Positions 901 through 38,739 of a stretch of DNA of 64,000 nt are shown in pieces. How positions within the stretch are numbered: the stretch's first letter is position 1; each line of letters begins with the position of its first letter. The position numbers and the translations under genes are program-made. A model generated the notes under the pieces. The model had not been told where the DNA came from, ran no database searches, and was given only the letters and a program-made list of their open reading frames with translations. Source of the DNA: Chiloscyllium plagiosum (Eukaryota); contig NC_057752.1 of NCBI RefSeq assembly GCF_004010195.1, forward strand, positions 5,634,971-5,698,970, written 5' to 3'.

Positions 901-1528
901 ACACATGGATTACAAAGAAGAGGCCAGTAAAGAAAGATAAGTGTTTAAAAAATGTTGATTGGTCTCAATTGTTTGTGCACAGCTAATAGTTGAATGTTGC
1001 AACCACTGCAGTGGATGTTACCAATAGCATTGGCAGTTGAACAAAACATCTTTGAGATTCTTGGCTTTGTAGGCTAATTCAAGTTCCTTTATCCTGATTC
1101 CTGTTCAAATCAGTTTAAAGTATTGGAAGTTAGAGAGGGTCTTTATCTGCAACACAGCAGTGACTTGGGTAAAGTTAACCAACTATAACTTTCACAGCAT
1201 GTTAACACTTGAATCTAGCCTGGTACACATGACAACATTCAGTCCCATTAGTTCACTCCAGTAGAGTTGAAACTGGCTTTTTTAACCCCGATGTTTGTGT
1301 ATTCTTCAAAGAGAAAAATACAAATTGTGTATGTTGTTTAGGAATAATCCACAGAGGTTGGCTCGCTATTCAACAGCAAGTCGTTAGACCCTCATTATAT
1401 CTGTAGTCACAAGAGATGACAGTCCAGTCTGTTTGAAGTTTCTTTGACACCTTTGTCATATCCCATTAGTCTCAAACAGAAGATTTTTACACCTGCAGTT
1501 TTTGTCTCTGTAGCAGTCCTCTTTTAAA

Positions 1529-1564
1529 ATTCCTGAAGAAGGGCTTATGCCCGAAACGTCGATT
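1529..1564 (+). ncRNA. Minimal type-I hammerhead ribozyme motif (PLE-type), intact core
   Basis: CTGAAGA (1533-1539), an extra A, stem II GGGC-TTAT-GCCC, GAAA (1553-1556), palindromic ACGT helix III, GTC triplet (1558-1560), and a short imperfect stem I ATTC/GATT. Confidence 0.75.
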
Positions 1565-1621
1565 CTCCTGTTCCTTGGATGCTGCCTGACCTGCTGCGCT
1601 TTTCCAGCAACACATTTTCAG
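1530..1621 (+). mobile_element. 92-bp Penelope-derived mini-insertion starting at a hammerhead motif
   Basis: Flanked by TSD CTCTTTTAAAA (1519-1529 / 1622-1632). Sequence matches the family A pLTR. Confidence 0.9.
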
Positions 1622-1759
1622 CTCTTTTAAAAACAACACATTTTAGAATTAAAAGACTGAAAATATTCACACTGTACTTTGAGTTTCTGACCCACGGTCA
1701 GGACAGGTGTGAAGCTAGTACAATTATAGCCATTTTCACATTGATCCAAACAACATGTT

Positions 1760-2010
1760 TTGATTCATTCATGGGATGTGGGTATCACTAGCTATGCAAG
1801 TATTTGTTGTCTGTCCCTAACTTCCCCTTAAGAAGGTGGTAGTGAATTGTCTTCTTGAACGGCTGCAGGCTATGTGGTGTAGATACATCCACAGTGCTAT
1901 TAGGGAGATTTGATCCAGTGACAGTGAAGAAACAACAATTTATTTTCAAGTCAGGATGGACTTAGTTTGGAGGGGCACTTGCAGACGGCATTGTTTCCAT
2001 GTATTTGAAG
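1760..2010 (-). mobile_element. 3' end of a CR1/L2-group LINE (tail shared with SINE family B)
   Basis: Similar to 11765-12000 and 40440-40650. Its reverse complement ends in the ...CACATCCCATGAATGAAT tail. Confidence 0.65.
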
Positions 2011-2204
2011 TCACAAATTTAAAACTATCCAAACTCAGCTATACCATCACTTCAGGTGGAGAGCAGGCCTTTCTTATTTTGGCTATGCTTCGTATCTGAT
2101 CTATTTATTGACCTCTGCTTTCTAAAGCTGTACTTTAAAGTATCATCATCACTCAAGCTCAGACAGTGCATTGGCATGACTCTTGGATCAAGGGCGGGGT
2201 AAAA

Positions 2205-2578
2205 TAATAGTAATGTGATTGGATGAGTAATCCAGACACCTGAACTCGAGACACAACTTCAAATCCTATCATGGCAACTAGCAAATTTGAATTCAATTAA
2301 TTAACCAAGACAAAGAAAGCTTGTACCAGATTGTTGTTAAAAACCAATCTGGATCACTAATGCCTTCCTGGGGAGGAAATCTACTGTCTTTACCTGGTCT
2401 GGCCTACATGTGACTGGAGCCACAGAGCAATGTCATTAACACTTAGCTGTCTCTCCACTGCCCTAGCAAGTCATTCCATTGTATTGAACCACTGCAGAAA
2501 AAATGTGTCCCTACCCTATGTGGACTGCAGTCACCCTTGAGGAAAATGCAAATGTGCAATAAAGGCTAGCCTTAACGG
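2205..2578 (+). mobile_element. SINE family B, tail interrupted by a solo LTR (resumes ~3231-3247)
   Basis: Shared motifs GGATCACTAATG and TTACCTGGTCTGGCCTACATGTGACT. The tail remainder CCATGAAGGAACAAAAA follows the LTR. Confidence 0.7.
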
Positions 2579-3230
2579 TGACACGATACTGTGGCTTTAA
2601 GAGGTGTATTTTGTCCTGTTTTTTTTTTGAAGAGAGGTTTTAAGACAGATGTATCAAACTGTCTATCTGAATTCAATAAAGTAAACAGCTTGTGAGACCT
2701 TGGGTTTTCTTTAAAGTTGGAACAAAAGAAGTAGCCTGAAAGGGTGGGATCAAACTCCCCCAGAGCCAGGATTTTCAGTTTTAGTTTTTCAGTGTCAATT
2801 TCTGCTGGGGTCTTGAAGTTGGGTTTGGAAGCTGCACTATATCTCTCCCTGCTATTCTCTCTCTCTCTCTCTGAATTTTCTCTTGATATTTTTTACTCCT
2901 CGACTGGAGAATTGCCCGTGAGACAATGTATTTTACTGAATTTGCCTTTGCCAAGGATGTGTTTATGGGATGTTACTACATTAAACAAGTTACTGTTTAG
3001 TAGTTAAATAACCCATAATTCTGTTAAGTTTTCCAATAGAGTTAATTATTCAAATGTCTTTCTTTTGTATATTTAACTATAGTGTATGAATAAAGTACTT
3101 TATTGCTTCATATTTGGTAGTTTGACCAATTAATTTGCACCCAGCATGCAACACCTGGCACTTTCCTTTAAAATAAGATATATTTAGGGTCATCTTAATA
3201 TATTTTGAAGGTTTGGACTGGTCCATAACA
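2579..3230 (+). mobile_element. Solo LTR, family 1 (~640 bp)
   Basis: Collinear with 27147-27785 and with the reverse complement of 62132-62763. Ends ...GGTCCATAACA. Confidence 0.8.
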
Positions 3231-4160: not shown

Positions 4161-4425
4161 TCACATTCTGTGTCTCCATGGGTTTTCTCTGGTTGCTCCA
4201 GTTTCTTCCCACAGTCCAAAGATGTGCAGGTTAAATGGATTGACCATGCTAAATTGCCCCGTAGTGTCCAGGGATATGCAGGCTAGGTGTATTAGCCACA
4301 GGAAATGCAGGGTTGCAGGGATGGGATAGGAGGGTGGGTCTGAGTGAGATGCTCTTTGGAGACTCAGTGTGGATGTGATGGGCCAAATGGCATCAATCTT
4401 TGTGCCATGCATTTATCTCTATAAT
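4161..4425 (+). mobile_element. 5'-truncated HE1-type V-SINE (variant body)
   Basis: V-domain ...CCCACAGTCCAAAGATGTGCAGGTT...CATGCTAAATTGCCCC and a CR1-like tail. Confidence 0.8.
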
Positions 4426-4427
4426 CT

Positions 4428-7418: not shown

Positions 7419-8159
7419 CCTCCAACAGCCACAACCATCTTCCTATGTGCCAGGTAAACCTCCAATCAGCAGAGAGTTTGCCCCTGATACCCATTAATAC
7501 CACATGGCTCCTTGATGCCTTTTGCTGTCACTCTCACCTCAACAGGAGAGATGTTGATAAATATTGCAAGACTTGACTGATGTAGGATTTAACATGACCT
7601 TTTTAGTTGGACAGACCGTACCTATCAAGATTTTACTTCTGCCACCAAGCTACTAACGAGAATCATTTTCTCCAAATCACATGATCTTACATCACTTCCG
7701 AATGACAATCTCTCATTTACTCTTCATGCTACAAAAATGAGGCATGTTGTTGGGAGAAAAGAGAAAGGATTACATTTTCACTCTCTGGCCTGGGAATGTT
7801 TCATATTAACAATTTCAATACTGTAACTGTCCAGTGCAACCCATTCCACTAGACTACCCAGGTGTGAAGACAAAAACGTGGCTAAAATGACAGTGTTGTA
7901 TTTAACACATCATTGGAGTGCAAAATCTGCATTGAAACAAATCTGAAATATTTACCATTGACTCGACTTCATGTCTAGTCCAGATACAACACAATGGCCC
8001 CAACAGCATGGAACGGAGCTGAGGGTTTGAGGCAAATTCAGCAGAGTAGCAGAACGTAAATGAAACAGTGATAGTAATTACTGCAATGAATTTCAACTCC
8101 ATCTCCATGCAATATAGGGTGCATTAGTTTCCTACTTGGAGGGAATAGTGAGGAAATGT

Positions 8160-8453
8160 GGGCGGCACTGCTACCTCACAGTGCCAGAGACCCGGGTTCA
8201 ATTCCCGCCTCAGGCAATTGTCTGTGTGGAGTTTGCACATTCGCCCCGTGTCTGCGTGGGTTTCCTCCGGGTGCTCTGGTTTCCTCCCACAGTCCAAAAA
8301 TGTGCAGGTTAGGTGAATTGGCTATGCTAAATTGCCCGTAGTGTCAGGTGTAGGGGAATGGGTCTGGGTGGGTTGCTCTTCAGAGGGTCGGTGTGGACTT
8401 GTTGGGCCGAAGGGCCTATTTCCGCACTGTAAGTAATCTAATCTAATCTAATC
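8160..8453 (+). mobile_element. HE1-type V-SINE
   Basis: B box GGTTCAATTCCC, V-domain and (TAATC)4 tail. Confidence 0.92.
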
Positions 8454-8516: not shown

Positions 8517-10677
8517 CAAAAGTGAGTACTGCAGATGCTGGAGATTAGAGTCGAGAGTGTGGAACTGGAAAAGCATGGAAGGTCAGGCAGCGTGCGAGAA
8601 ACAGGAAAGTTGACATTTCAAGCATACTCCCTTCATCAGGAATGAGGCTTGTGGACCAAGGGGACTGAGAGATAAATGGGAGAGGGGTGGGGAAGGTAGC
8701 TGAGAGTGCAATAGGTAGATGGAGGTGGGGGTAAAGGCGATAGGTTGGAGAGGAGGGTGGAGCGAATAGGTGGGAAGGAAGATGGATAGGTAGGACAGAT
8801 CATAAAGGTGGTGCTGAGCTGTAAGGTTGGAACTGGGATAAGGTGGGGGAGGGGAAATAAGGAAACTGGTGAAGTCCACATTGATAGCATGGGGTTGGAG
8901 GATCCCGAGGCAAAAGATGAGGCGTTCTTCCTCCAGGCGTCGGATGGTTAGGGAGTGGTGATGGAGGAGGCCCAGGACCTGCATGTCCTTGGCGGAGTGA
9001 GAGGGGAGTTGAAGTGTTCAGCCACGGGACGGTGGGGTTGGTTTCTGCAGGTGTCCCAGAGATTTCTCTGAAGCGCTCTGAGAGTAGGCATCCTGTCTCC
9101 ACAATGTAGAGGAGACCGCATCGGGAGCAACGGATACAGTAAATGATGTGTGGAAGTGCAGGTGAAACTTTGATGGATGTGGAAGGCTCCTTTGGAGCCT
9201 TGGACGGAGGTGAGGGGGAGGTGTGGGCGCAGGCCCACCCAAGCCCTCCACCAAGACTTTTGTTTCCCTGGCCCCAACACCTCATCTTCACCATGGACAT
9301 CCAGTCCCTATACACCTCCATCCGCCATGACCAGAGTCTCCAAGCCCTCCGTTCCTTCCTCTCCTGACATCCCTACAAGCACCCTTCCACTGACACTCTA
9401 ATTTATTTGGTTGAACTGGGCCTCACCCTCAATAATTTCTCCTTTGAATCTTCCCACTTCCTCCAGACGAAAGGGGTAGCCATGGGCACCCGCATGGGCC
9501 CCAGCTATGCCTGTCTCTTTGTCGGCTATGTGGAATTGTCTATCTTCCGTAGTTCCACCGGCACAATTCTCTACCTTTTCCTCTGCTACATTGATGACTG
9601 CATCGGCGCCATCTTGTGCTCCCAGGAGGAGGTTGAGCAGTTAATCAACTTCACCAACACATTCCACCCCGACCTTAAATTCACCTGGACCATCTCAGAC
9701 ACCTCCATCACCATCAATGGTGACCGACACTGACATCTTCTACAAACCCCCCGACTCCCACAGCTACCTGGATTACACCTCCTCCCACCCTGCTTCCTGT
9801 AAAAATGCTATCCCTTATTCTCAATTCCTCCACCTCTACCGCATCTGCTCCCAGGAGGTCCACTTCCAACACAGAACACACCAGATGGCTTCCTTCTTTA
9901 AAGACTGCAATTTCCCTTCCCACATGGTTGATGATCCCTCCAGCGCATCTCATCCACTTTCCACACCACCGCCCTCGAACCCCACCCCTCCAACCGCAAC
10001 AAGAACAGAACNNNNNNNNNNNNNNNNNNNNNNNNNNNNNNNNNNNNNNNNNNNNNNNNNNNNNNNNNNNNNNNNNNNNNNNNNNNNNNNNNNNNNNNNN
10101 NNNNNNNNNNNNNNNNNNNNNNNNNNNNNNNNNNNNNNNNNNNNNNNNNNNNNNNNNNNNNNNNNNNNNNNNNNNNNNNNNNNNNNNNNNNNNNNNNNNN
10201 NNNNNNNNNNNNNNNNNNNNNNNNNNNNNNNNNNNNNNNNNNNNNNNNNNNNNNNNNNNNNNNNNNNNNNNNNNNNNNNNNNNNNNNNNNNNNNNNNNNN
10301 NNNNNNNNNNNNNNNNNNNNNNNNNNNNNNNNNNNNNNNNNNNNNNNNNNNNNNNNNNNNNNNNNNNNNNNNNNNNNNNNNNNNNNNNNNNNNNNNNNNN
10401 NNNNNNNNNNNNNNNNNNNNNNNNNNNNNNNNNNNNNNNNNNNNNNNNNNNNNNNNNNNNNNNNNNNNNNNNNNNNNNNNNNNNNNNNNNNNNNNNNNNN
10501 NNNNNNNNNTCCATCTACTGCACTCTCAGCTATCTTCACCCCCCCCCCCATCCCATTTATTTCTCTTTCTCAGTCCCTCGGCTCACAAGCGTCATTCCTG
10601 ATTAAGAGTTTATGTCCGATTTTCCTGTTCCTTGAATGGTGCCTGACCTGTGCTTTTTCAGCGCCACACTATCGACC
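8517..10677. mobile_element. Penelope-like retroelement with inverted arms (minus arm 8517-~9228: tail, pLTR, GIY-YIG; plus arm ~9229-10677: RT ... pLTR)
   Basis: RT motifs FTMDIQSLYTSI, QTKGVAMGTRMGPSYACLFVG, YIDD and LKFT. GIY-YIG IIYCIRCSRCGLLYIVETG. TSD CATAGACTTGGTGG (8503-8516) / CATAGGCTTGGTGG (10678-10691). Confidence 0.92.
10012..10509. other. Assembly gap (498 N)
   Basis: Run of N. Confidence 1.
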
Positions 10678-13265: not shown

Positions 13266-13274
13266 TTTTTATTT

Positions 13275-16299: not shown

Positions 16300-18060
16300 A
16301 GAAATGAGCAAAGACAGAGCAGATTCTGAGTGGTCTGGCAGACTTAAATGCAAATAAATATCCAGGGCAGATGAAATGCATCCCACATTGTTGAGTGAGG
16401 CAAGGGAGGAGATAGGGGCATTTGCAAAAATATTCAATTCCTGTCTGGCTGCAGGAGAGGCACCGGAGGACTGGAGGACAGCCAATATAGTACCGTTATT
16501 CAAGAACAGAGCAAGGGATAAACCAGGAAACTATAGGTCAGTTGGTCTAACCTCAGTGGTGGGAAACTATTGGAAGCAATTTGGAAGGACAGAATCTGTC
16601 TGCATTTGGTAAGGCAGGGATTAGGCAAGAACAGTCAGCATGATTTTGTTCAGGCAAGGTCATGTCTGACCAACTTGATTGAATTTTTTTTAAAGAGTTG
16701 ACCAGGTGTGTAGATGAGGGCAATGCTTTTGATATAGTTTACTTGGACTTCATAAAGGCTTTTGATAAAGTCCCACATGGAAGACTGGTAGCAAAGGTAA
16801 GTGCCTGTGCGATCCAAGGGAATTTGGCAAATTGGATCCACAATTGGCTGAGTGGCAGAATGCAGTGGGTGATGGTTGAGGGGTGTTTTTCCAACTGGAA
16901 ATCTTGTGTTCAGTAGGGTCCCTTCGGGGTCAGTGATGGGGCCCTTGCTATTTGTAGGTTATATAAATAGTTTAGACTTGAATGTAGGAGGGTTGATAAG
17001 TTCACAGATGATACAAAATTTGAGGGGTGGTAAACAGTGAGGAGGATAGCCTTTACCAACAAGTGGATAAAGACTGGCGGGTCAGATGTGCTGATCAGTG
17101 GCAAATAATATTCAATCTGATAAGTGTGAGGTAATGTGCTTGGGCAGGACAAAGAAGGTAAGGGAATGCATGATGAATAGTAAGACCCTGGGAAGCACCA
17201 AGGATCACCAGGCACAAGCAACAGTGAGGCAAGTAGATCAAGTGGTTAAGAAGGCATAGAGTCAAGAGCAGGGAGGTGATGTTGCAACTGTTTTAAAAAA
17301 AAAGGTTAGGCCACAGCTAAAATATTGTGTGCAGTTCTGGAATCTACATTATAGGAGGGATGCGATAGCACTGGAGAGGGTGCAGGGTAGATTTATCAGG
17401 ATGTTGCCTGAGCTGGAGAGTTTCAATGATGAAGAGAGTTTGGATAGACCGGGGTTGTTTTCCTTCAAGCGGAGGAGATTGAGAGAAGTCATGATTTGAG
17501 ATGTATAACATTATTAGGGGCATAGGTATGACAGACCAGAAGAAACTGTTCCCCATGATGGAGCAATTAGGGCGGCACAATGGCACAGTGGTTAGCACTG
17601 CTGCCTCTCAGCGCCAGGAACCCAGGTTCACTTTTTACCTCAGGCAACTGTCTGTGTGGAGTTTGCACATTCTCCCCGTGTCTGCGTGGGTTTCCTACGC
17701 GTGCTCCGGTTCCTCCCACAATCCAAAGATGTGCAGGTTAGGTGAATTGGTCATGCTAAATTGCCCATAGTGTTAGGTGCATTAGTCAGGGGTAAATATA
17801 AGGTAGGGGAATGGGTCTGGGTGGGTTACTCTTTGGACGGTTGGTGTGGACCTGTTGGGCTGAATGGCTTGTTTCCATACTGGAGGGAATCTAACCTAAT
17901 CTATTCTAACCAGGAGCATTGATTTAATGTAAGGGGCAGGAGGTTGAAAGGGAATGTGAAGAAAAACATTTTCATCCAGATGGTGGTGAGAAGATAGAAC
18001 TCACTACTTGTAAGGGTGGTAGAGACAGAAACACTCTCAACATTTAAGAAGTACTTAGTG
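16300..18060 (+). mobile_element. CR1 LINE ORF2 (RT) relic; its 3' end resumes at ~21446-21575 after the PLE
   Basis: PEDWRTANIVPLFK, PGNYRSVGLTSVVG and DIVYLDFIKAFDKVPHGRL. 3' UTR TATGGGCCAAGTGCTGG after 21481. Confidence 0.9.
17570..17903 (+). mobile_element. HE1-type V-SINE nested in CR1
   Basis: GGGCGGCACAATGGCACAGTGGTTAGCACTGCTGCCTC head, V-domain and tail. Confidence 0.92.
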
Positions 18061-18072
18061 TTGGATGCAACT

Positions 18073-21000
18073 AGGAGAAAGTGAGGACTGCAGATGCTAG
18101 TTGAGTGTGTGGATCCTTCTCAGGATGAAGAACACCAGAGGTCTTTTTACTGGTCTGGGAGAGTGTAGTCTGAGCTGGGGCAAGGCTGACAGGGAGAGTA
18201 GATAGCAACACATGGCTGTGAGCATGGAGCGGAGGATCTGGAGGGAGAACCGTTTCTGGAGACTTTTGATTCGCTGTAGGAAATGGTAGTCCTGCTCGGT
18301 TCCAAATTGCGATGCTCTGAATGTAGTCTGGAGTTATGGGGGATGAGTCGATTGAGTAGGCAGGTGCTGAAGTCATTATTCACGCAACCATTACAGCCAC
18401 CACTACCACCATAAATGATGTCGCTTCTACTTCCGGCACCAAGCTCACTGTTGTACCGCTTCTGCAAATGCTGCTGGTAGTTCTGCCTCTGCGATCGCCA
18501 CCAGAACTATGCCTCCGCGATCACTGCCAGAGCTAGGGCCTCCACGAGCGCTGCCAATACCTCTACCTCCACGATCACCGCCAGAACTACGGCCTCCGCA
18601 AACATCGCTAATACCTCCGCCTCTGCAATTGCTGCCTGCCACATCACCTCTGCCCCTGTGGTTGCCAATGCTCCTTCCACCCCCACTGACATCACTGACT
18701 GGAAAACCAATGACGACCATGCCGTCCCCACTGCAACTGCCGATAGCACCACTTCCATGAACGCCGCCAAGAGCATCACTTCCACCCCTGCGGTTGCAGC
18801 CGAACATGCAACCTCTGCCCCCGAGAACGCCACCATTGATGTCACTTACTGAATCACTGCTGACGATGTCCCCTTCGCAGCCACTGTCGCTGAGGGTACT
18901 GCTTTCATGAATGCCATCAAAAATGTCACTTCCGCCCCTGCGGTTGCTACCGAACACACCACTTCTGCCCCCATGACCACCACTGTACATGTCACTTCCT
19001 CCAGTGATGTCACCTATGATGTCACTAACAATCACATGATCACCTGCACTCCAGAGACCGTCTCCAGTTCTACACCAAGCCCCAGTCTTGTCGTGTTTTT
19101 ACCAGACCGCCCCCTTGCTGAGGATGAACGATCAGTCAACAGTAAAGGTCTCCCCTTCATCCCAGTACACACCCGGATCAATGAATTCTGTACGTGTTGC
19201 GACATTTAACTTTTCTTCCATCACCTCCGCCTTTGTGCTTACTCTTTCAATCGTGACTCCCATCCACCCTCCAAAGACCCCTTCTCCTACCTCCAACATA
19301 CTCCATCCTCTTGGACACCCCGCTGGCCTCCTACCTTCCCTCAACCTCTTTATCTTCAACTGCTATTTGACATTGACCACATCAACCTGTCCACTCTCCT
19401 CACCTACTCCAATCCTCACCCTTTCAATGCACAGCCCTCCACTCCAACCCCAACATCACCATCAAAACAGCAGACACTGACCTCTACTTCGCCGAAGCCA
19501 GATGTCAACTCGCTGACACCTCCTCCTACCGCCCCCTCCGCCACGACTCCACCTCTCATCACCAAACCATCATCTCCCAAACCATTGACAACCTCATCAC
19601 CTCAGAGGATCTCCTATCCACACCTCCAACTCATAGTTTCCCAACCCTGCACCACCTGATTCTACCTGTTACTCAAAGTCCACAAACCTGACTGCCCTGA
19701 TTGACTTATTGTCTCTGCCTGCTTCTTCCCCATTGAATTCACCTCCTCATACCTCAACTCCATCCTGTCCCCCTTGGTCCAGGAACTCCCCACATATGTT
19801 CAGGACACTACCCTCCACCTCCTCCATGACTTTCGATTCCCCGACCCCCAGCACCTCAACTTCACCATGGGCATCCAGTCCCGATACACATTCATCCCTC
19901 ATGGGACAAGCCCTCCATTTCTTCCCCTCCCACCGAACTAACCAGTCCCCCTCTGCTGACACTCATTCAATTGGCAGAACTGGTCCTCACCCTCAATAAC
20001 TTCTCCTTCAAATCCTCCCACTTCCATCGGACCAGAGGGGTAGCCATGGGCACCAGCATGTGCCCCAGCTATGCCTGTCTCTTTGGGTATGTGCAACAGT
20101 CCATCTTCGGTAGTTATACCGGCACCTTTTCCTCCACTACATCGATGACTGTATCAGCGCTGCCTCTTGCTCCCACGAGGTGGTCAAATGATTTATCAAC
20201 TTCCCCCATTCCTTCCACCCTGACCTCAAGTTCACCTGGATTATCTCGGACACCTCCTTCCCATTCCTGGACCTTTCCATCTTCAGCGACCAACTCAATA
20301 CCAATGTCTACTTCAAACTCCTGACTCCCACAGCTACCTGGACTACACTTTTTCTCACTCCCCCTCCTGTAAAAATGCTATCCCTTACTCGCAATTTCTC
20401 CGCCGTATCTGCTCCCAAAAGGACCAATTCCACTCCAGAGCATCCCAGATGGCCTACTACTTCAAGGACTGCAATTTCCCCTCCCACATGATCAACAATG
20501 CCCTCCAGCGCATCTCCTCCTCTTCCTGAACCTCTGCCCTCAAACCCCACCCCTCCAATCACAACAAGGATAGAAACCCCCTGGTCCTAACCTTCCACCC
20601 CATCCCACTAAACTCCAGATACATCACATCATCCTCCGCCACTTCTGCCACATACAGTCAGACTCCTCCACCAGAGATATATTTACCTCCCCACCCCTAT
20701 CTGCATCCCGCAAAGAGTATTCCTTCCGTGACTCCCCTGTTAGGTCTGTTGCTACCCCCCCACCCCCATCACCACCTTCCAAGGCCCCAAAGGGTATTTT
20801 CACATCCGGCAGAGATTTTCCTGCACATCCACCCACCTCATCTAGTGCATCCATTGCTCTCGATGTGGTTTCCTCTACATCAGGGAGACAGGACGCCAAC
20901 TCACAGAGCGTTTCAGGGAATATTTCTGGAACAAACGCACCAATCAACCCCACTGCCCTGTGGCTGACCACTTCAACTCCCCCTCCTATTCCTCCAAGGA

Positions 21001-21445
21001 CATGCAAGTCTTGGGCCTCCTCCACTGCCAAATCAGAGCCACCCAACACATGGAGGAAGAACGCCTCATCTTCCGCCTTGGGACCCATCATCCACATGGC
21101 ATCAACATCGAGTTCACTAGTTTCCAAATCTCCCCTACCTCCACATCATTCCAGATCTAACCCTCCAACTCAGCACCGCTCTCTTGACCTGTCCTACCTG
21201 TCCATCTTCCTTCCCACCTATCTGCTCCACCCCACCCACCAACCTATCACAATTACTCCCTACCTGCATCCACGTTTTGCCTTTCCACCTGCCTCCCCTC
21301 CCCCCACCCCGCCTCCCCAATTTATCTCTCATCCCCCTTCCACATTACTGATGAAGAGCTTGTGTCCAAAACATTGACTCTCGTGATTCTCGGATGCTGC
21401 CTGACTGACCTGCTGTGCTTTTCCAGTGCCACCCTTTTCGACTCT
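18073..21445 (+). mobile_element. Long decayed Penelope-like element (inverted tail 18073-18098, inverted N-terminal segment ~18099-18372, then S/T/A-rich linker, RT, GIY-YIG and pLTR on +)
   Basis: DERSVNSKGLPFIP, TRGVAMGTSMCPSYACLF, TACATCGATGAC (YIDD), GIY-YIG region ~20820-21120, and a decayed hammerhead at 21344-21380. Confidence 0.9.
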
Positions 21446-21640
21446 TAGCCTTATATGCCTTGGTATCACAAGTCTACATCTATGGGCCAAGTGCTGGAAA
21501 ATAGGATTTGATTTTGGTGGTTGTTTTTGACTTGTGTGGATGTGATGGACTGAATGGCCCTTCTCTGTGCTGATCTCTCTGTCTCTATTTTGAATATCCC
21601 CCCAAGATGATTTTTTTTTTCTGTTGGCAAAGCTGCAGAA

Positions 21641-21942
21641 GTATTAGCACTGCTGCCTCTCAGTGCCAGGGACCTGGGTTCGATTCCTGCCTCGGGCAAC
21701 TGTCTGTGTGGAGTTTGCACATTCTCCCCGTGTCTGCATGGGTTTCCTCCGGGTGCTCCGGTTTCTTCCCACAATCCAAAGATGTGCAGGTCTGGTGAAT
21801 TGGCCATGCCAAATTACCCATAGTGATAGGTGTGTTAGCTGTGGTAAATATAGGCTCGGGGAATGGCTCTGGCTGGGTTACTCGTCAGTGTGGACTAGTT
21901 GGGCCGAAGGGCTTGTTTCCATACTGTAGGGAATGTAATCTA
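21641..21942 (+). mobile_element. HE1-type V-SINE
   Basis: TTAGCACTGCTGCCTC, GGTTCGATTCC, V-domain and tail. Confidence 0.9.
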
Positions 21943-22572
21943 AAAAATACTCCAATGGTAGTATAATTGGCACTCAATCCTGTAGGCAGTTATTATTCAG
22001 GTTTTTAAAAATATTGAGTATTAGTCCATTGTCTGTACTTTATGAGAGTGAACACACACAATACAGAGCACAGTTATAAAACAAGTTAAGGAAGTCTCCA
22101 AATGTTCACTCTGAAAGTCATTATCATCTTTATTTAGCAATTTTTAAAAAGAAATTGCAACTCCCTGTTTGTGGAATTGGGAACATTGAGATAAATTAAA
22201 ATCTTCTGTGATTTTTTGGACCTTCTAAAATTGCTCCCCAGCCACCGTTTTGCTTGTGTTGAATAGTACCATCATAACAGTGAACGCCTCGCCGTCTGGC
22301 TGAGGAATTGTCCGATGAAACACATCTGTTATGAGTTTTCCATCTCTATAAAACTCATCAGAATTGTGCAGTAAAAAAGTGAATTGTTTCGTTACCACTT
22401 CCTGTTTACAGCTGGAAATTAACTTGCTTGCTCAGCTTTGTCTTGCTGCAGAAATTCAAGGGCCCATTGGGTCACGCAAGTGTTGGATGCCCTTTTCTGA
22501 AGGTTGCCTTGAATGGCTGGTGGTGAATTATCATTGTATCTCGGAGATTGATTGATACTGCAAGACTGGGAG

Positions 22573-23606
22573 TCAAGAGTGTAGTGCTGGAAAAGCACAG
22601 CAGGTCAGGCAGCATCCGAGGAGCAGGAGAATCAATATTTCAAGCATCAGCCCCTCATCAGGAATAAGGCTGTGGCCCAAGGGGACTGAGAGATAAATGG
22701 GAGGGGAGTGGGGCTGGAGGGAAGGTAGCTGAGAGTGCGCTAGGGTAAATGGAGGTGGGGGCGAAGGTGACAGGAGAAACCATTCCCTCCGCGACTCTCT
22801 TGTTAGGTCCATGATCCCCACCAACCCACCCTCCCGGCACCTTTATCTGCCACCGCAAGAAGTGTGAAACCTATACCCACATCTCCTCCCTCACCTCCGT
22901 CCAAGGCCCCAAAGGATCCTTCCACATCTGACAGAGATTTACCTGCACTTCCACACACATCATCTACTGTGTCGGTTGCTCCTGATGTGGTCTCGTCTAC
23001 ATAGGGGAGACAGGACACCAACTTGTGGAATGTTTCAGAGAACATCCCTGGGACACACGCACTAAACAACCCCACTGCCCTGCAGCCGAACACTTTAACT
23101 TCCCCTCCCACTCCACCAAGGACATGCACGTCCTGGGCATCCTCTACTGTCAAACCCTAACCACCCAACGCCAGGAGGAGAAACACCTCATCTTCCACCT
23201 TGGGACCCTCCAACCACACTGGATCAATGTGGATTTCACCAGTTTCCTCATTTCCCCTCCCCCTAATCCCAGATCCAACCTTCCAACTCGGTACCGCCCT
23301 CATGACCTGTCCCACCTGTCCATCTTCTTTCCCGCCTATTCGCTCCACCCTCCTTTCTGACCTATCACCTTCACCCCCACCTTCATCCACCTATCGCTTT
23401 CCCAGCTACCTTCCCCCCCAGCCCCACCCCCTCTGCCATTTATCTTTCAGACCCCCTAGGCCACAAGCCTCATTCCTGATGAATGGCATATGCTTGAAAC
23501 GTCGATTCTCCTGCTCCTCAGATGCTGCCTGACCTGCTGTGCTTTTCCAGCACCACACTCTTCGACTCTGATCTCCACTTTTCTGCAGTCCTCACTTTCT
23601 CCTAAT
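22573..23606. mobile_element. Penelope-like insertion with inverted arms (minus pLTR 22573-~22775; plus GIY-YIG + pLTR + tail ~22776-23603)
   Basis: GIY-YIG fragments (YIGETG; AEHFNFPSH; EEKHLIFHLGTLQPHWIN). TSD AAGACTGGGAG (22562-22572 / 23607-23617). Confidence 0.9.
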
Positions 23607-23689: not shown

Positions 23690-26600
23690 GATCATCACCG
23701 TGCAGTACAGAACCTTTGGCCCTCGATGTTGCGCCAACCTGTGAAACCAATCTGAAACCCATCTAACTTATACTTTTTCATTATCATCCATATGTTTATC
23801 CAATGATCATTTAAAGGCCCTTAAAGTTGGCAAGTCTGCTACTGTTGCAGGCAGGGCAACGCACACTGTTCCACGCACTTAATACTCTCTGAGTAAAGAA
23901 CCTATCTCTGACATCTGTCCTATATCTGTCACCCCTCAATTTAAAGCTATGTCCCCTCATGCTAGCCATCACCATCAGAGGAAAAAGGCTCTCACTGTCC
24001 ACCCTTTCTAATCCTCTGATCATCTTGTATGTCTTTATTCACAACCTCACAACCTTCTTCTCTCTAACAAAAACAGCTTCAAGTCCTTCAGCCTTTTGTC
24101 ATAAGACCTTCCCTCCATACCAGGCAACATCCTGGTAAAATCTCTTCTGCACCCTTTCCATTGCTTCCTCATCCTTCCTATAATGCGGTGACCAGAACTG
24201 TACACAATACTCCAAGTGTGGCCCCACCAGAGTTTTGTACAGCTGCAGCATGACCTCATGGCTCTGAAACTCAATCCCTCGACCAATAAAACCTAACACA
24301 CTGTACTCCTCCTTAACAACCCTTGGGTGGCAACTTTCAGGGATCTATGCATATGGACACCAAGATGTCTCTGGTCATCTACACTACCAAGAGTCTTACC
24401 ATGAGCCCAATACTGTGTATTCCTGTTACTCCTGCCACAGTGAATCACCTCACACTTTTCTGCATTAAATTCCATTTAATGCCACCTCTCAGCCCAGCTC
24501 TGCAGCTTATCTATGTCCCTCCGTAACTTGCAACACCCTTCTGCATTGTCTACAACTCCACCAACCTTAGTGTCATCCACAAATTTACTAACTCATCCTT
24601 CTACTCTCTCATCCAAGTCATTTATAAAATGATAAACAGCACTGGCCCCAAAACAGATCCTTGCGGTACACCACTAGTAACTAAACTCCATACTTTACCC
24701 GTGTCCACCTGTTTGGTCACCTTCGCAAAGAACTCAATAAGGCTTGTGAGGCATGACCTACCCTTCACAAAACTATCCCTAAACAAATTATCCCTTTCTA
24801 GATGATTATAAATCCTATCTCTTATAACCTTTTCCAACACTTTACCCACAACCGAAGTAAGACTCACTGGTCTATAATTTCCAGGGTTGTATCGACTTGA
24901 ACAAGGGGACATTAGCTATCCTCCTGTCTTCTGGCACTATTCCTGTAGACAATGATGACATAAAGATCAAAGCTAAAGGCTCTGCAATCTCCTCCCTGGC
25001 TTCCCAGAGAATCCTAGGATAAATCCCATCTGGCCCAGAGGACATTTCTATTTTCACACTTTCCAGAATTGCTAACACCTCCTCCTTATGAACCTCAATC
25101 CTGTCTAGTCTAATAGCCTGTATGTCGGTATTCTCCTCAACAACATTGTGTTTTTCCTGTGTGAAATCTGACAAAAAATATTCATTTAGCACCTCTTCTA
25201 TCTCCTTGTACTCCACTCACAACTTCCCACTACTGCCCTTGACCGGCCCTGATCTTACTCAAGTCATTCTTTTATTCCTGATGAACCTATAGAAAGCTTT
25301 AGGGTTTTCCTTGATCCTACCTGCCAAAGACTCCTCATGTCCCCTCCTGGCTCTTATTCGCTCTCTTTCGGTCCTTCCTGGCTAACCTGTATCTCTCAAC
25401 TGCCCTAGCTGAGCCTTCATGTCTCATCTTTACATTAGCCTCCTCCTTCCTCTTCACAAGAGATTCAACTTCTTTAGTAAACTACAGTTCCCTCGCTCGC
25501 TCGACCACTTGCTCCCTGCCTGACCGGTACATACTTATCAGGGACATGCAGTAGTTGTTCCTTGAACAAGCTCCACATTTCAATTGTGCCCATCCCGTGC
25601 AGTTTCCTTCCCCATCCTATGCATCCTAAATCTTGCCTAATTGCATCATAATTACCTTTCCCCCAGCTATAACTCTTGCCCTGTGGTACATACCTATCCC
25701 TTTCCATCGCTAAAGTAAACATAACCGAATTGTGGTCACTATCACTAAAGTGCTCACCTACTTCCAAATCTAACACCTGGCCAGGTTCATTATCAGTACC
25801 GAATCCAATATTGCCTCGCCTCTTGTTGGCCTATCTACATACTGTGACAAGAAACCCTCCTGCACACAATGGACAAAAACGGACCCATCTAAAGTTCTCG
25901 AACTATAGCGTTTCCAGTCAATATTTGGAAAGTTAAAGTCCCCCATACCAACTAGGTAAAAACAATGACTGCAGATGCTGGGCTTTTGCCCGAAACGTCG
26001 ATTTTGCCTGTCCTCGGATGCTGCCTGAATTGCTGTGCTCTTCCAGCACCACTGATCCAGAACCCCCATACCAACTACCCTGTTACTTTTGTTCCTATCC
26101 ATAATTATGTTTTCCAGAGCTGTAGAGGAAAGGATTGCACTTTTCAGAGGCCTATAGAAAACTCCCACCAGGGTGACCTCTCTTTTCCTGTTTCTAACCT
26201 CAGCCCATACTACCTCAGTAGGCTAGTCCTCATCAAATGTCCTTTCTGCCACTGTAATACTGTCCTTGACTAACAATGCCACACCTCCCCCTCTTTTACC
26301 ACCTTCCCTGTTCTTACTGAAACATCTAAACCCCAGAACCTGCAACAACCATTCCTGCCCCTGCTCTATTCCATGTCTCCGAAATGGCCACAACATCTAA
26401 GTCCCAGGTACCAACCCATGCTGCAAGTTCACCCACCTTATTCCGGATGTTCCTGGCGATGAAGTAGGTACACTTCAAACCACCTTCCTGCCTGCCGGTA
26501 TACTCTTGCGACTTTGAAACCTTATTTATGACCACACTACTCTCAACCTCCTGTACACTGGAGCTACAATTCAGGTTCCCATCCCCCTGCTGAATTAGTT

Positions 26601-32817: not shown

Positions 32818-33011
32818 AGGAGATAATGATGCTGGAGAGTCAGAGTCAATAACGTATGGCGCTGGAAAAAGCACAGCAGGTCAGGCAGCATCCGAGGAGC
32901 AGGAGAGTCGACGTTTTGGGCAGGATCTGATGAAGGGTTCTGCCCAAAATGTGGATTTTCCTGCTCCTTGGATACCACCTGACCTGCTGTGCTTTTTTCA
33001 GTGCCACACCT
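32818..33011. mobile_element. Fold-back (palindromic) PLE mini-insertion
   Basis: Two ~65-bp inverted pLTR arms around a loop containing CTGATGA. TSD AATCTACTGAGAAT (32804-32817) / AATCCACTGAGAAT (33012-33025). Confidence 0.88.
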
Positions 33012-33059
33012 AATCCACTGAGAATTCAGTGATACTTCACAGCTACCTCCAAATGTCCA

Positions 33060-33982: not shown

Positions 33983-34026
33983 CGTTTTGGGGTGTCACTC
34001 CACAGCTAGTTTCAGAGTTCACAGGT
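33983..34026 (-). other. Candidate 44-nt exon
   Basis: Acceptor TGTTGTCCTTTCAG| and donor ACG|GTAAGG in unique sequence. One open frame (PVNSETSCGVTPQN). Confidence 0.25.
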
Positions 34027-34657
34027 CTGAAAGGACAACAGGATGACAGTCTTGCTAACAGGAGAGTTGAAATTCAGTCATTTACTTTCCCAAGACAGGG
34101 AATTCTGACCGAATCTGCATCTATGATTTGATTTCTGACATATTATTTCTTTCTTAAATTGTGAAGCCATCTTAGAGCTCAACGGCCACAAGACAAGAAC
34201 CCCCTCAACTTCCAGAGGCTCTGACTGACATGCAGCACTTTCCTGTTCATCTGGTATTGAGGTACCAGCTGGGCAAAGTATGAGAGGTCATGGTTCAGAG
34301 AATATACTTGCACATGTTTCCCCAAAAGGAACAGCAGTAGACACAGTCCCAGAAATTTGCAGGACAAAGTTGACTCAATGAGATCACTCCCCACTTGGGG
34401 ATTTAACTGGACTGTAAAATCAAGCCGAGTTAAACCAGCATCCAATGTGATCAGTTTCGCTACCAGGCAGTTCCAATTCAAATGATCTCCTGCATTTGGA
34501 GGAGAAATTTGAATGACTGTGTGTTCAGCCTGGGAGCAAATTTCACCAGGTGAAATAAATGGCAGATTTATAACATTGGTCCATTAACAGAAGAGACTGA
34601 AGACATACATTGAGGTGATGGAGGACAAGACTATTAAAATGGCAGAGACAAGACGCT

Positions 34658-34779
34658 AGGCGAAAGTGAGGACTTGCAGATTAGAATCTGGAATGTGGTG
34701 CTGGAAAAGCGCAGCAGGTTAAGCAGCATCTGAGGAGCAGGACAATCGACGTTTCGGGCATAAACCCTTCATCAGGAAT
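34658..34779 (-). mobile_element. 122-bp tailed PLE mini-insertion with an intact hammerhead core (34744-34779)
   Basis: Reverse complement ATTCCTGATGAAGGGTTTATGCCCGAAACGTCGATT. Imperfect TSD GAGACAAGACGCT (34645-34657) / GAGACAGGACACT (34787-34799). Confidence 0.85.
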
Positions 34780-35171
34780 CAGACAGGAGACAGGACACTG
34801 CCTGACATGCAAACCTCTCCAACCAAGGAAAGGTTTGTGTACCATGGCTTGTTTATCATTGTTCCAGATTTTCTTGCCAACCAGGTCAGCTTTTCCCTTC
34901 TGTGGTCTTCGATGATAGCACCTTATTCTCAGACAGTGTTTTACAACAGGCAGCGGATAGTAATCATTTTCAAAGTGCTGTTTTAATGATACTACAGGAT
35001 GTCACTTAATAGATTCAGGCCACTTCAGCGCATGCTTGAGTTTGCTAACTCTGATGCTGACACACATATCTTGTTGCATTTTCATTCCACTGGTAGACTG
35101 CAGAGCAATCGTGAGCTATAACTCAATAGAATAGCATTGACTTCCAAGTGCAGTACCTTGAACTGTTTGAG

Positions 35172-36415
35172 AGGCCTGCCCGACAGCGTCCAAATAGCAC
35201 AGAAACAGACCCTTTGGTCCAATCCGTCCATTCTGACCAAATTTCCCAAACTAACTTCATCTCACTTGTTTGCGTTTGGCCTCTAAACCTTTCCTCTTCA
35301 TGTACCTCCAAATGTCATAGAGTCATAGAGATGTACAGCATGGAAACAGACCCTTCGGTCAGACCCGTCCATGCCGACCAGATATCCCAACCCAATCTAG
35401 TCCCACCTGCCAGCACCCGGCCCATATCTCTCCAAACCCTTCCTATTCATTTACCCATCCAAATGCCTCTTAAATGTTGCAATTGTACCAGCCTCCACCA
35501 CATCCTCTGGCACCTCATTCCATACATGTATCACCTTCTGTGTGAAAAAGTTGCCCCTTTGGTCTCTTTTATATCTTTCCCCATCTCACCCTAAACCTAT
35601 GCCCTCTAGTTCTGGACTTCCCGACCCCAGGGAAAAGACTTTGCCTATTTACCCTATCCATGCCCCTCATAATTTTGTAAACCTCTATAAGGTCACCCTC
35701 AGCCTCCGACGCTCCAGGGAAAACAGCCCTAGCCTGTTCAGCCTCTCCCTGTAGCTCGTATGCTCCAACCCTGGCAACATCCTTGTAAATCTTTTCTGAA
35801 CCCTTTCAGGTTTCACAACATCTTTCCGATAGGAAGGAGACCAGAATTGCACGCAATATTCCTACAGTGGCCTAACCAATGTCCTGTACAGCCGCAACAT
35901 GACCTCCCAACTCCTGTACTCAATACTTTGACCAATGTCTTTTGAATGTTGTAACTGTATCTCCATCTACGACTTGCTCTGGCAGTTCATTCCACATATG
36001 ATCCACCCTCTGTGTAAGAAAATTATCCCTCAGTCCTTTTTAAATCTTTCTCCTCTCACCTTAAACCTATGCCCTCTAGTTTTGAACTCCCCTACTCTGG
36101 GGAAAAGACCTTGGCTATTCACCCTATCCATGCCTCTCACGATTTTATAAACCTCTGCCAGGTCACCCCTCAGCCCACCACACCAGTGGAAAATTTCACA
36201 GCCTATGCAGCCCTCCTCATAACTTAAATCCTCCAGTCCTGGCAACATCCCTGTAAATCCTCCCCGAACCCTCCCCAATTTAACAACATCCTTTCCACAG
36301 CAGAGCTAGCAGAACTCTACAAAGCGGCCCTACCAACACCCTGCACATCTGCTCAATGGTCTGAGCAATGACGGTAAGTATGCCAAACACATTCTTAACA
36401 ACCCTGTCTACCTGT
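35172..36415 (-). mobile_element. HER1/CR1 3' end with a younger HER1 copy (~35317-35933) nested inside
   Basis: Two successive CR1 3' UTRs. AATGTC is duplicated at 35311-35316 / 35934-35939. LRGDLAEVYKIVRG...TRGHRFK. Confidence 0.85.
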
Positions 36416-37440
36416 GATGGGGTTCTGTTTCAGGTTGATGACCTGTGGCTGTGGGGTTCCACAGGGGTCAGTGCTGAGTTCAAAACTCTTTACAATATAT
36501 GTTAATGACTTGGAGGAAGGCAGAGAATGTACTGTTGCCAAATTTGCAAATGCCACTACAAGGGCAGGTTGTGAGATGCATACAAACAGTTACAGAGAGA
36601 TTTTGATAGGTAAAGTGGGCAAAAAAAGTTGTCAAATGGGGTATAATGTGAGAAATCACAAAGTTGTACATTTTGGAAAGAAGAACAAAAGAACAGTATA
36701 TTATTTGAATAGAGAGAAACTACAGAAAGCTGCAATACAAAAGGATGTTGGGGTACTTGTGTACAAAACACAGAAAGCGAGCACACAGTTTCATCAGGTA
36801 ATCAGGAAGGCAATGGAATATTGGTCCTTTTTTCATAGGAGTACAAGAGTAGGGAAGCCTTACTGCAACTGCACAAGGTGCTGGGGAGACTATATCTGGA
36901 GTACCTTGAGCAGTTTTGGCCCCCCTACCTAAAGATCATATCACTTGAGGCTGTTGAGAGAATATTCACCAGGATATGCCCTGGTATGGAGGGATTGTCT
37001 TAAGAGCAAAAGATCAACAGGCGGGGACTTCACCCACTGGAGACCAGAAAAATGAGGCAATCTCACTGACACACACAGGATTCATAAGGGGTTCGACAGG
37101 GTAAATGCTGAGAGGATGCCCATCCCCATGGGAGAGTCTAGGACCAGAGGGCATCATCTCAGAACAAAGGGGTACCAATTTAGGACTGAAATAAGGAGAA
37201 ATTTCTTCTCTGAGGGTTGGGAGCCTTTGGAACTCCTTGCCACAGAGAACTGTGGGGCAGAGTCCTTGTGTAGATTTAAATCTGAGATAGATAGATAGAT
37301 TCTTGGCCAGTAGGGGAATCAAGGGTTATAGGGAGGAAGGGTAGAAAAGTGAATGTGAGGCATGCCAGACCAACCATGATCCCCCCAAAAGCAGAACAGA
37401 CTCGATCGGCAAAACAGCCCACTCCTGCTCCTACCTTCCA
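36415..37440 (+). mobile_element. CR1 RT C-terminal half + 3' UTR
   Basis: GVPQGSVLSSKLFTIYVNDL, KFA, KDVGV and SRTRGHHLR...RRNFFS. Confidence 0.88.
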
Positions 37441-38028
37441 TTGCCAATTGTCCTTGTTCAAAAATAAGGGGTCACCTGTTTAAAACAAAGATGAGGGAAT
37501 ACTTTTACTGCCAGAGGGTTGGGAATCTTTCTTCCTCAAAAGGCCAGGAGATGGAGAACCTTTAAATATTTTTAAGGTAGAGATAGGTAGATTACTGATG
37601 ACCAAGGGAATGAAAGATGATTGAGGTATATGCAAGAATATAGAGTTGAGGTTAAAAATCAGATCAACCGTGAGCTTATAGAATAGAATAGTAAGCTTGA
37701 AGGGGCATGTGACCTTCTGTAATGTCCCTATGTTCCAGTCTTTCCAATAAAGGGAAACATCCTTGCTGTGTTATTTAAGCGTTCACTGACTAGGCCGTCA
37801 TTATTTTCTCTTGCCCTCGAGAGCACGGTGGCAAGTCGCCCTTCCCAAACTGCCACAGTACCCTACGTGGTGCAGGGGCACCCTGCACTGCGCTGCGAGG
37901 GGGGAGCCCCAGGGTCCTGACACTGAAGGAATGGCCTATACACCTCCATGTCAAGATGAGTTCGCAGGGGCAGCAATGATAACAGTTCTTTGGTCTCTTC
38001 AAGTAGAAAGGAAGTACAAGTGGAAAGT

Positions 38029-38127
38029 ATTGAGAGAGTGGTGCTGAAAAAGCACAGCAGGTCAGGCAGCATCCGAGGAGCAGGAAAATCGACGTTACGA
38101 GCATAAACCCTTCATCAGGAATGATAC
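38029..38127 (-). mobile_element. 99-bp tail-less PLE mini-insertion (hammerhead 38087-38122, GAAA mutated to GTAA)
   Basis: TSD TACAAGTGGAAAGT (38015-38028 / 38128-38141). Confidence 0.9.
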
Positions 38128-38739
38128 TACAAGTGGAAAGTGTGAATGGTGACGCTAGTATGTACAAGAATGAGCTACAAATTTGGCTTCTCCGTCAGTT
38201 ATCTGACGCAGTGACCCTGAGAAAGATTCACTTGCTGAGAAGCTTAATGCTTTGGTGGCATTTGCAGCCAAGGCACAAGCTTTCTCAGCATTAAGGTGAC
38301 TTGTTCTGAAGCACTTGCTTAGCTTGCACATTCCTTTTAGAGTGCCAGGCCAGTACAGTCTGGCCTGTAAACCTGGTTCTGCAAACATTAATACAGTAAA
38401 TAAACCCTGTACTGCTGACACTGAGGGGTGTGCCTTTAGAAATTTACCGAAACTTCAAGAGTCTGAGTGTGCAGATTAGGACTGCATCTGTCAAGTATTT
38501 ATCTTCATGGCAAAGTGTGCACTAAATATTGGTTTATTTAAATAAATTAGACTTCTTAACTAAACCTTTGTTCTTTTAGCAATGTTGGATCCCAGAGGCC
38601 TACAAACACATGCATGTCCAGCATTCCTGGGCTACAAATGAGGGGGATGAGTTCTTGTGTTATTTAGGGGCAGGTATCTCCTTCACCCAAAGTCATTGAA
38701 AGTTTTGGTGAATAGAATCCAGATCCCACTCAATTCCAT

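Follow-up and report, generated by a model that had tools for sequence, protein, structure and literature searches.

Throughout the genome of the shark Chiloscyllium plagiosum, about half of the pLTR arms of a Penelope-like element (PLE), short insertions among them, have their 5' end at the 5' edge of helix I of a predicted hammerhead ribozyme. The short insertions likely arise (with a probability of roughly 0.6) by internal priming of reverse transcription, followed by run-off at the 5' end of an uncleaved RNA that itself likely begins at helix I. The inserts are the terminal 90-130 bases, comprising the pLTR and a predicted minimal hammerhead, of ordinary Penelope-like retrotransposons, which a linker motif assigns to the Neptune type.

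Insertions in the window and their parent element

The window, a 64,000-nucleotide stretch of contig NC_057752.1, contains the features listed below. Positions within the pLTR are counted from coordinate 0, the A of ATTCCTGA, which is the first base of helix I; the predicted ribozyme cut falls after +31.

1529..1564, plus strand: minimal type-I hammerhead, read from the sequence, cleavage activity predicted
1530..1621, plus strand: direct mini-insertion of family b, pLTR from 0 to a short 3' end at about +92; TSD 1519-1529/1622-1632, 11 bp, exact
34655..34786, minus strand (34658-34779 in the first-pass annotation): tailed direct mini-insertion, 5' end at 34779-34782 (-3..0), 3' end at about +129; TSD 34645-34654/34787-34796, 10 bp, 1 mismatch
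38029..38127, minus strand: direct mini-insertion, 5' end at 38122 (coordinate 0), short 3' end at +90 followed by a few further bases up to the TSD; TSD 38015-38028/38128-38141, 14 bp, exact
25955..26062, no single strand: head-to-head insertion, inverted arm 25955-25981 of tail only (+103 to about +130), direct arm 25974-26062 (+6..+94); TSD 25940-25954/26063-26077, 15 bp
32818..33011, no single strand: head-to-head insertion, minus arm tailed with 5' end about +17..+23, plus arm from +4 (32927); TSD 32804-32817/33012-33025, 14 bp, 1 mismatch
8519..10676, no single strand: long head-to-head copy of the same element, minus arm 8519-9233 tailed, plus arm with short 3' end, an RT fragment (9368-10010) and an N gap
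22570..23601, no single strand: long head-to-head copy, minus arm 22570-22779 short-ended, plus arm tailed, extending to 23601, with a GIY-YIG fragment (22986-23360)
20498..21445, plus strand: long copy, 5'-truncated, reading through 0
57621..57871, minus strand: young family-b copy, tailed, reading through 0 (to about -119)
9..214, plus strand: family-b copy, short 3' end, reading through 0

The three direct insertions had been described as independent, and each has its own TSD, with 5' ends at 0, -3..0 and 0, the TSD of 34655..34786 being weak when taken alone (score 7, matched by 8 of 300 shuffled flank pairs). Both insertions said to switch strand inside the ribozyme are real, but in 25955..26062 only the direct arm ends there, the inverted arm being tail.

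The pLTR is linked to an RT domain: RVT_1 scored above the Pfam cut-off in two loci (L188 and L175), and the pLTR lies about 1.1-1.5 kb past the RT piece in most of 20 loci; four short fragments from the window gave no Pfam match. A C-terminal GIY-YIG endonuclease with two internal cysteines was recognised by eye in the L188 frame and at window positions 22986-23360; a Pfam search of the L188 and L175 ORFs returned no GIY-YIG match, and a PDB sequence search with the ORF returned none. The L188 frame also contains a CX4CxxC linker, and a CX2-5CxxC linker before the endonuclease is given in the available text of PMC8557442 as a feature of Neptune and Nematis that Poseidon lacks. The ORF begins about 40 nt past the tail. 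The pLTR with a 30-40 nt tail, the inverted 5' copies and the TSDs were all found, as bimodal 3' ends, 56 head-to-head pairs and TSDs above shuffles (score at least 8 in 22 of 62 direct copies, vs 1 of 300 shuffles). With the pLTR linked to an RT ORF and with tails, TSDs and inverted arms, the PLE origin proposed in the first-pass annotation stands.

The hammerhead at 1529..1564 consists of a helix I 5' strand ATTC, a CUGAnGA box, an extra A, helix II (GGGC/GCCC), GAAA, a palindromic ACGU in place of helix III, a GUC cut site after 1560, and a helix I 3' strand GATT. Sequence and alignment together reveal the CUGAnGA and GAAA boxes, helices I and II, the palindromic helix III and the NUH site of a minimal type-I hammerhead; an Rfam scan of the window gave no hammerhead match.

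A genome-wide boundary at helix I

The 5' ends of pLTR arms were examined in 160 systematically spaced 10-kb stretches of the genome (1.533 Mb excluding N), from which about 790,000 arms are extrapolated for the genome. Arms adjoining N gaps or stretch ends (22) were treated as censored. Among 206 uncensored arms of families a, b and d, 115 have their 5' end in -7..+10, bounds that were set after inspection of the histogram, and 6 end in -8..-69. The mode is exactly 0, with 58 ends within 2 nt of it vs just 5 within 2 nt of +32, where the cleavage site shows no peak. Measured against the element's own flanks as baseline, the stop rate is 6.02 per 100 nt in -7..+10, compared with 0.23 in -8..-69, 0.24-0.32 further upstream, and 0.72 and 0.41 downstream of the peak. 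A shoulder of ends extends up to +10, low-rate ends persist through the hammerhead core, and 47 of 164 arms at risk (about 30%) read through 0 seamlessly. Simulated uniform truncations (500) gave a flat distribution, leakage into the peak amounting to 9 of 227 upstream ends. Thus the breakpoint histogram is not smooth and peaks at the ribozyme, and two suggestions made from the window alone, that the ends cluster non-randomly at helix I and that they lie away from the predicted cleavage site, are borne out genome-wide.

The 3' ends of the pLTR are bimodal, short at about +90 and long (tailed) at about +130. The 5' end lies in the peak in 54 of 94 short-ended and 57 of 106 long-ended arms, with a median of +4 in both, so the boundary is fixed by position and not by length. 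Families e and f (89 uncensored arms) were kept outside these counts because they have few long references; by eye and in two further analyses their 5' ends cluster near 0 too.

Three earlier treatments of the breakpoints were set aside: a single-reference histogram, confounded by families with differing upstream sequence; an initial breakpoint method, in which 29 of 164 simulated ends leaked into the peak; and all-against-all extents, whose bump at -80..-200 was an artefact of head-to-head pairs matching each other and was removed by masking.

Solo hammerheads (PMC4209133) and the tails and inverted ends of PLEs (PMC8557442, PMC3846280) are already described in the available portions of published accounts; searches of mostly open-access literature found no paper with this boundary.

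Head-to-head pairs

A long and a short 3' end are combined in 52 of 56 head-to-head pairs, the remainder being one short with short, one long with long and two unclear. The long-short combination (52 of 54; p = 1.6e-13) may be set beside the direct mini-insertions, which split 26:25. TSDs were found in 45 of 56 pairs vs 6 of 150 shuffles, and 29 of 46 called TSDs are 14-16 bp long. Within a pair the two arms differ less from one another (0.108) than from arms elsewhere (0.196), and private variants are common to both (30 pairs). This likeness could also reflect one active source at a time, or gene conversion. Some pairs have identical arms and must therefore be very young. Twin-priming geometry, in which the long arm ends at +79..+103 at the beginning of the short arm, is present in 4 of 52 pairs. 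Fold-back self-priming was rejected as the main route: it predicts a long-arm 5' end upstream of that of the short arm, an arrangement seen in 18 of 52 pairs, with 32 showing the reverse.

Probable run-off at the 5' end of the RNA

About half of the ends stop at the front edge of the hammerhead, likely because the copied RNA begins there. This reading, absent from the first-pass annotation, is favoured over the two options offered there, a discrete mini-retroposon and a structure-determined stop. The endonuclease would cut both target strands about 14-16 bp apart, and RT would start on one RNA at the two tail sites where the upstream pLTR meets the ORF, each site serving one strand. Each cDNA would end at the 5' end of the RNA, most likely a Pol II start (a pyrimidine, then A at 0); one cDNA retained would give a direct mini-insertion, and both joined would give a head-to-head pair. 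The arms that pass 0 call for other templates, which may have been a tandem transcript, a circle made by the hammerhead, or a template jump.

Copies containing the ORF start bear on this reading. Among 50 such loci, which are best matches to two queries (one itself a junction copy) and not a random draw, the upstream pLTR begins in -7..+10 in 14, and in 11 the ORF sequence is joined straight to a pLTR starting at -13..+7, the junctions leaving the ORF at varied points, 438-974 nt beyond the tail. A pyrimidine at -1 and A at 0 occur in long copies of five seed families and of a sixth. As an initiator the motif is weak: the flank is pyrimidine-rich, 0..+3 belongs to helix I as well, and YYANWYY does not hold in the sixth family. 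Two read alignments revealed no site at which many molecules begin, and reads lay on both strands; in the alignment to the family-d reference, loose read ends at 0 are confounded by other families. The 5' junctions gave no sign of an extra G derived from a cap (2 of 8 with G at 0, 7 of 20 at -1..+1).

According to the available text of PMC11167929, the PLE protein of a lizard cuts the two strands and extends them, begins reverse transcription at two internal sites, requires RNA downstream of these sites and mostly uses uncleaved RNA. That in vitro work concerns a Poseidon element, and the shark element is Neptune-type. In Drosophila virilis, transcription of Penelope starts 46 nt ahead of a 75-nt intron (PMC2377424), the end of which maps to helix I in the accessible part of PMC4209133, so a start at helix I is not general.

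Alternative origins of the short copies

A non-autonomous ribozyme retroposon, SINE-like or retrozyme-like, with its own master copies mobilised in trans by the PLE RT, would account for the discrete size, TSDs and high copy number of the mini-insertions, and PLE-derived retrozyme monomers are described in the available text of a preprint (bioRxiv 10.64898/2026.07.22.740005). This proposal of the first-pass annotation is largely refuted, since mini-insertions and long copies are interleaved. In a tree of 163 arms there are 41 changes between long and short vs 44.4 +/- 2.6 when shuffled, the nearest neighbour of a mini-insertion is a long copy in 41% of cases vs 32% under permutation, and the three largest clusters (48, 10 and 9 arms) are mixed; mini-only clusters exist (one of 6, one of 2), and the 84-nt alignment has limited power for small sub-lineages. 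The same boundary also occurs in every family and in ORF-bearing copies, and by analogy with the lizard protein the mini-insertions would lack the required RNA downstream of the start sites. None of the five inserts in the window is arranged in tandem head-to-tail units as in retrozymes; each is either single or head-to-head. It is only slightly less improbable that each mini-insertion is a solo pLTR that remained after the two direct pLTRs of a full-length insertion had recombined. Such recombination would preserve TSDs, could leave head-to-head pairs too, agrees with the boundary seen in upstream pLTRs, and is proposed, alongside deletion, for rotifer solo pLTRs in the available text of PMC3846280. 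However, just 2 of 340 sampled arms continue into the ORF start, some pairs are very young, the homology is only about 100 bp, and the start of the upstream pLTR at 0 is left unexplained.

Stalling on a longer RNA, where a folded or dimerised ribozyme or a bound protein would block RT or repair synthesis or favour template switching, is unlikely, though the strongest competitor. It would suit a boundary that coincides exactly with helix I in every family inspected, the seamless passage of about 30% of arms, and the shoulder and low-rate ends within the core. However, RT arrives from the 3' side of the structure and meets the hammerhead at +35, so stops would be expected at +35, +25 or +4, yet the ends accumulate on the opposite, 5' side, where their upstream edge is sharp, and few lie at +32. 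Moreover, helix I has just 4 pairs, with a U-U mismatch in most a, b and d copies, and predicted folds of monomers are no more stable than shuffles (z -1.1 to +0.8, 5 sequences). The sharp 5' boundary at helix I stands, but structure, one of the causes suggested for it in the first-pass annotation, is less likely than a template end. The RNA end at 0 might instead be produced by processing, such as 5'-3' exonuclease trimming to a protein-bound hammerhead, with run-off otherwise as proposed; as a variant within the favoured reading, it retains a very small probability outside it. The exact match to helix I, the missing cap-derived G and the weak initiator match are compatible with it, and nothing counts directly against it, although in six families the pyrimidine and A at the boundary (Y-1/A+1) are conserved where helix I is variable at +1..+3.

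A broader proposal may be advanced tentatively, with the odds somewhat against it, that PLEs have a strong-stop step. A dimeric RT/endonuclease would prime both strands of the target at two fixed sites close to the 5' end of a single RNA, and the default product would be a dead cDNA of 90-130 nt. Copying the gene would then require a jump to another template, a tandem transcript, or a circle formed when the hammerhead cleaves and the RNA is ligated. On this view the hammerhead would serve to place the element's 3' end ahead of the priming site, and the mini-insertions, in their hundreds of thousands, would be a fossil record of unprocessed RNA.

Comparison with known systems

Penelope-like elements are the sister group of telomerase. 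In L1 twin priming, two target strands prime on one RNA and an inversion results; retroviral minus-strand strong-stop DNA is a short cDNA, synthesised close to the 5' end of the RNA, that must switch template to continue. In the shark PLE both arms usually copy the same stretch, and priming would occur on target DNA at fixed internal sites, with no tRNA primer or RNase H.

EN+ PLE insertions, as presented in the available text of PMC8557442 and PMC3846280, resemble those of the shark in an ORF with RT and C-terminal GIY-YIG, the pLTR, a tail (30-40 bp) at one end, an adjacent head-to-head inverted and 5'-truncated copy, TSDs and heavy 5' truncation. They differ in that those portions give no fixed 5' boundary and treat the tail as optional, whereas the shark copies have the helix I boundary and the long-short pairing (52/56). 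Inversions are attributed in the accessible part of PMC3846280 to self-priming on an antisense template; the shark data fit two primers on sense RNA better. The solo metazoan PLE hammerheads of Cervera and de la Pena (2014, PMC4209133) are likewise type-I and minimal, with a palindromic helix III and an extra base before helix II, mostly single and sometimes two on opposite strands, and in the text available were interpreted as truncated PLEs; thousands of motifs per genome are reported there, compared with the far larger number extrapolated for the shark. With PAc, the Anolis Poseidon studied in vitro (Frangieh et al. 2024, PMC11167929, available text), the model for the shark element has in common a pair of internal sites, 3' of the hammerhead and matching genomic 3' ends, at which RT starts, as well as cutting and extension of both strands and use of uncleaved RNA; the element differs in where the ORF starts, which is in helix II in PAc and past the tail in the Neptune-type shark element.

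The base-level boundary, the strict long-short pairing and the jump junctions give concrete predictions for this sole in vitro PLE system, and bear on how PLEs complete insertion and why hammerheads are carried. Non-LTR retrozymes, in the portion of the preprint available (bioRxiv 10.64898/2026.07.22.740005), are similarly non-coding, pLTR-related, dispersed as monomers and equipped with a type-I hammerhead, but are defined as tandem hammerhead units, whereas the shark inserts occur singly or head-to-head and form no separate lineage. In annotation of the genome, this very abundant short repeat should be labelled as PLE ends rather than as a SINE or a retrozyme.

Short inserts in the window

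Coordinates are counted from position 0, the A of ATTCCTGA, with which hammerhead helix I begins; from the sequence and alignment, the hammerhead is predicted to cut after GUC at +31. One kind of repeat end, the pLTR arm (the terminal piece of a Penelope-like element, PLE, with a minimal hammerhead), is present as 16 pieces within the 64-kb window, including the following short inserts:

1530-1621, direct insert, 11-bp exact TSD, 5' end at 0
34658-34779, direct insert, 10-bp TSD with one mismatch, 5' end at -3..0
38029-38127, direct insert, 14-bp exact TSD, 5' end at 0
25955-26062, inverted insert, 15-bp exact TSD
32818-33011, inverted insert, 14-bp TSD with one mismatch

The first-pass annotation had taken the direct inserts to be independent and to begin within a few nt of the first strand of the ribozyme, and on both points it was right. 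The inverted inserts, which it described as switching strand inside the ribozyme, are both present with TSDs, but the inverted arm of 25955-26062 consists of tail only, so the switch is not symmetric within the ribozyme. Longer copies in the window continue past 0. The window also contains at least seven copies of a repeat, SINE-like and ~270-300 bp long, with a putative tRNA-like head:

617-889, 8151-8453, 17581-17906, 21633-21929, 57386-57948, 59733-60033 and 61492-61771, SINE-like repeat

Genome-wide survey of 5' ends

The 3.56-Gb vertebrate assembly, whose repeats look shark-like, was sampled in 160 evenly spaced 10-kb stretches of contigs C1-C37 (1.533 Mb without N), in which five real seed copies matched 340 pLTR arms, or ~790,000 by extrapolation to the genome. 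Breakpoints of the 318 arms that passed a coverage filter were mapped against real long copies belonging to their own family group; when 500 uniform truncations were simulated and mapped in this way, the result was flat (median error 0, 88% within 5 nt, 9 of 227 leaking into the peak). Families a, b and d contributed 228 arms (22 censored, 206 counted), of which 115 have their 5' end in a peak at -7..+10 (21 at 0, 14 at +1, 11 at -1) and 6 in -8..-69. The stop rate at this helix I peak is 6.02 per 100 nt, compared with 0.23, 0.24 and 0.32 upstream, and 0.72 (+11..+30) and 0.41 (+31..+60) downstream. The 5' boundary is sharp and non-random, as had been argued from the window.

Because the arms of one pair (a head-to-head insertion of two arms) are not independent, ends were also tallied per event: a peak end is present in 41 of 92 direct copies and in at least one arm of 46 of 56 pairs. 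The 3' ends are bimodal, near +90 (short arms, without tail) and +130 (long arms, with tail), with one 5' boundary common to the two classes (peak ends in 54/94 and 57/106), which indicates that the 5' end is set by position. TSD scores of at least 8 were obtained for 22 of 62 direct short copies (59 sampled, 3 from the window) versus 1 of 300 shuffles. In runs from other organisms, X19, X20 and X21 have loose ends with unlike flanks at 0/+1 within the six listed, and X15 does not. A sixth pLTR family (L011:5836-6050, L019:8553-8820, L091, L178) has a UUGACAA core, a variant of the U3-A8 type. At 0 this family carries the palindrome AGCT, and its head-to-head pairs are joined there or close by.

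Lineage and pairing of arms

A discrete mini-retroposon with its own master lineage, one of two readings proposed in the first-pass annotation, is not borne out. A tree of 163 arms (53 long, 110 short) has 41 label changes versus 44.4 +/- 2.6 in 500 shuffles, the nearest neighbour of a mini (a 90-130-base copy) is a long copy in 41% of cases versus 32% in permutations, and long and short arms are mixed in the three largest clusters. The minis form no separate lineage.

Head-to-head pairs (54 sampled, 2 in the window) combine a long-ended with a short-ended arm in 52 of 56 cases; direct minis comprise 26 short and 25 long. TSDs, mostly of 14-16 bp, surround 45 of the 56 pairs, and the two arms within one pair are alike beyond family level. 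A simple fold-back origin is disfavoured, since 18 pairs have the 5' end of the long arm upstream of that of the short arm and 32 have it downstream; in 4 pairs the long arm ends near the short arm's start site. The geometry fits a process in which two target strands would be primed at two start sites on one RNA.

Parent element and ORF-bearing copies

Loci matched by the window's RT fragment mostly have this pLTR 1.1-1.5 kb downstream. Locus L188 encodes a 590-aa frame with an RT domain match and, read by eye, a CX4CxxC motif followed up by internal cysteines in a GIY-YIG-like segment, a motif set that fits the Neptune/Nematis definition in PMC8557442. The ORF starts ~40 nt beyond the tail, and just before it, at the position of the long 3' end (+130), lies a sequence resembling a 3' splice acceptor (CTCAC, a run of pyrimidines, TAG); family e has a second such run, ending near +55.

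34656-34675 (-), acceptor-like sequence at +130
23590-23606 (+), acceptor-like sequence at +130
18070-19999 (-/+), PLE 5' part (tail fragment and ORF start, ~18173-18372 minus), adjoining RT-like frames 19637-20324 and long copy 20498-21445
55858-56460, different PLE fragment with GIY-YIG, CX4CxxC and WYIG motifs in frame, apparently another family

Long PLE copies are under-assembled, since N gaps in the assembly repeatedly interrupt their C-rich 3' part (window 10012-10509 and most of L171-L190).

Fifty loci with an ORF start were compiled (30/40 and 20/40 of the matches listed for two queries). Their upstream pLTRs start in the peak in 15/50 by script, or 14/50 after the doubtful L219 is dropped, and are more widely spread than terminal-arm starts; a start at -11 in L192 was rejected as a false match. 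At 11/50 loci, one being the query itself, ORF sequence is joined directly, at varying points, to a pLTR starting at -13..+7, and two other visible junctions, those of L207 and L216, are further upstream. The direct junctions look like template jumps made once cDNA had reached 0.

Gutted derivatives, in which 440-970 nt from the start of the ORF lie between two pLTRs and the junction differs from copy to copy, occur at 11 loci (L191, L194, L199, L218, L222, L226, L229, L235, L236, L238, L240); since they retain a complete pLTR-ORF junction and the terminal hammerhead, some could be mobile in trans. In L202 and L210 (also L195, L206) the direct arm begins inside the ORF, ~470-1020 nt past the tail, without a terminal pLTR, suggesting priming at a stray internal site; L202 and L210 have an inverted tailed arm and, by eye, a TSD. 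At L219:1940-2300 a family-d copy end precedes a family-b inverted arm and a family-b pLTR reading into an ORF start, suggesting a nested or mixed-family structure.

Possible mechanism and relation to known elements

In a Poseidon element, according to PMC11167929, two internal RT start sites coincide with genomic tail ends, both strands are cut and extended, RNA downstream of the start sites is required and uncleaved RNA is used. If this behaviour holds here, priming would occur only from a pLTR followed by an ORF start, and a transcript begun in the upstream pLTR would give cDNA ending after 90-130 nt. Six families retain a pyrimidine at -1 and an A at 0, and five have the full initiator consensus, YYANWYY. 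No pile of molecule starts was seen in RNA reads aligned to PLE references, and no extra G was found at 5' junctions. In D. virilis the Penelope transcription start lies ahead of an intron (PMC2377424) whose end falls at helix I (PMC4209133), which counts against the generality of a start at 0.

The short inserts are truncated PLE ends, a real and strong signal that is ordinary in kind. Minimal hammerheads that occur singly and are read as truncated PLEs (PMC4209133), PLE tails and inverted pLTRs (PMC8557442, PMC3846280), pLTR promoters (PMC6765202) and retrozyme monomers (bioRxiv 2026.07.22.740005) are already published; neither the helix I boundary nor the strict long/short pairing was found reported in the literature searched. 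The precise 5' boundary and the pairing of arms bear on the mechanism of PLEs.
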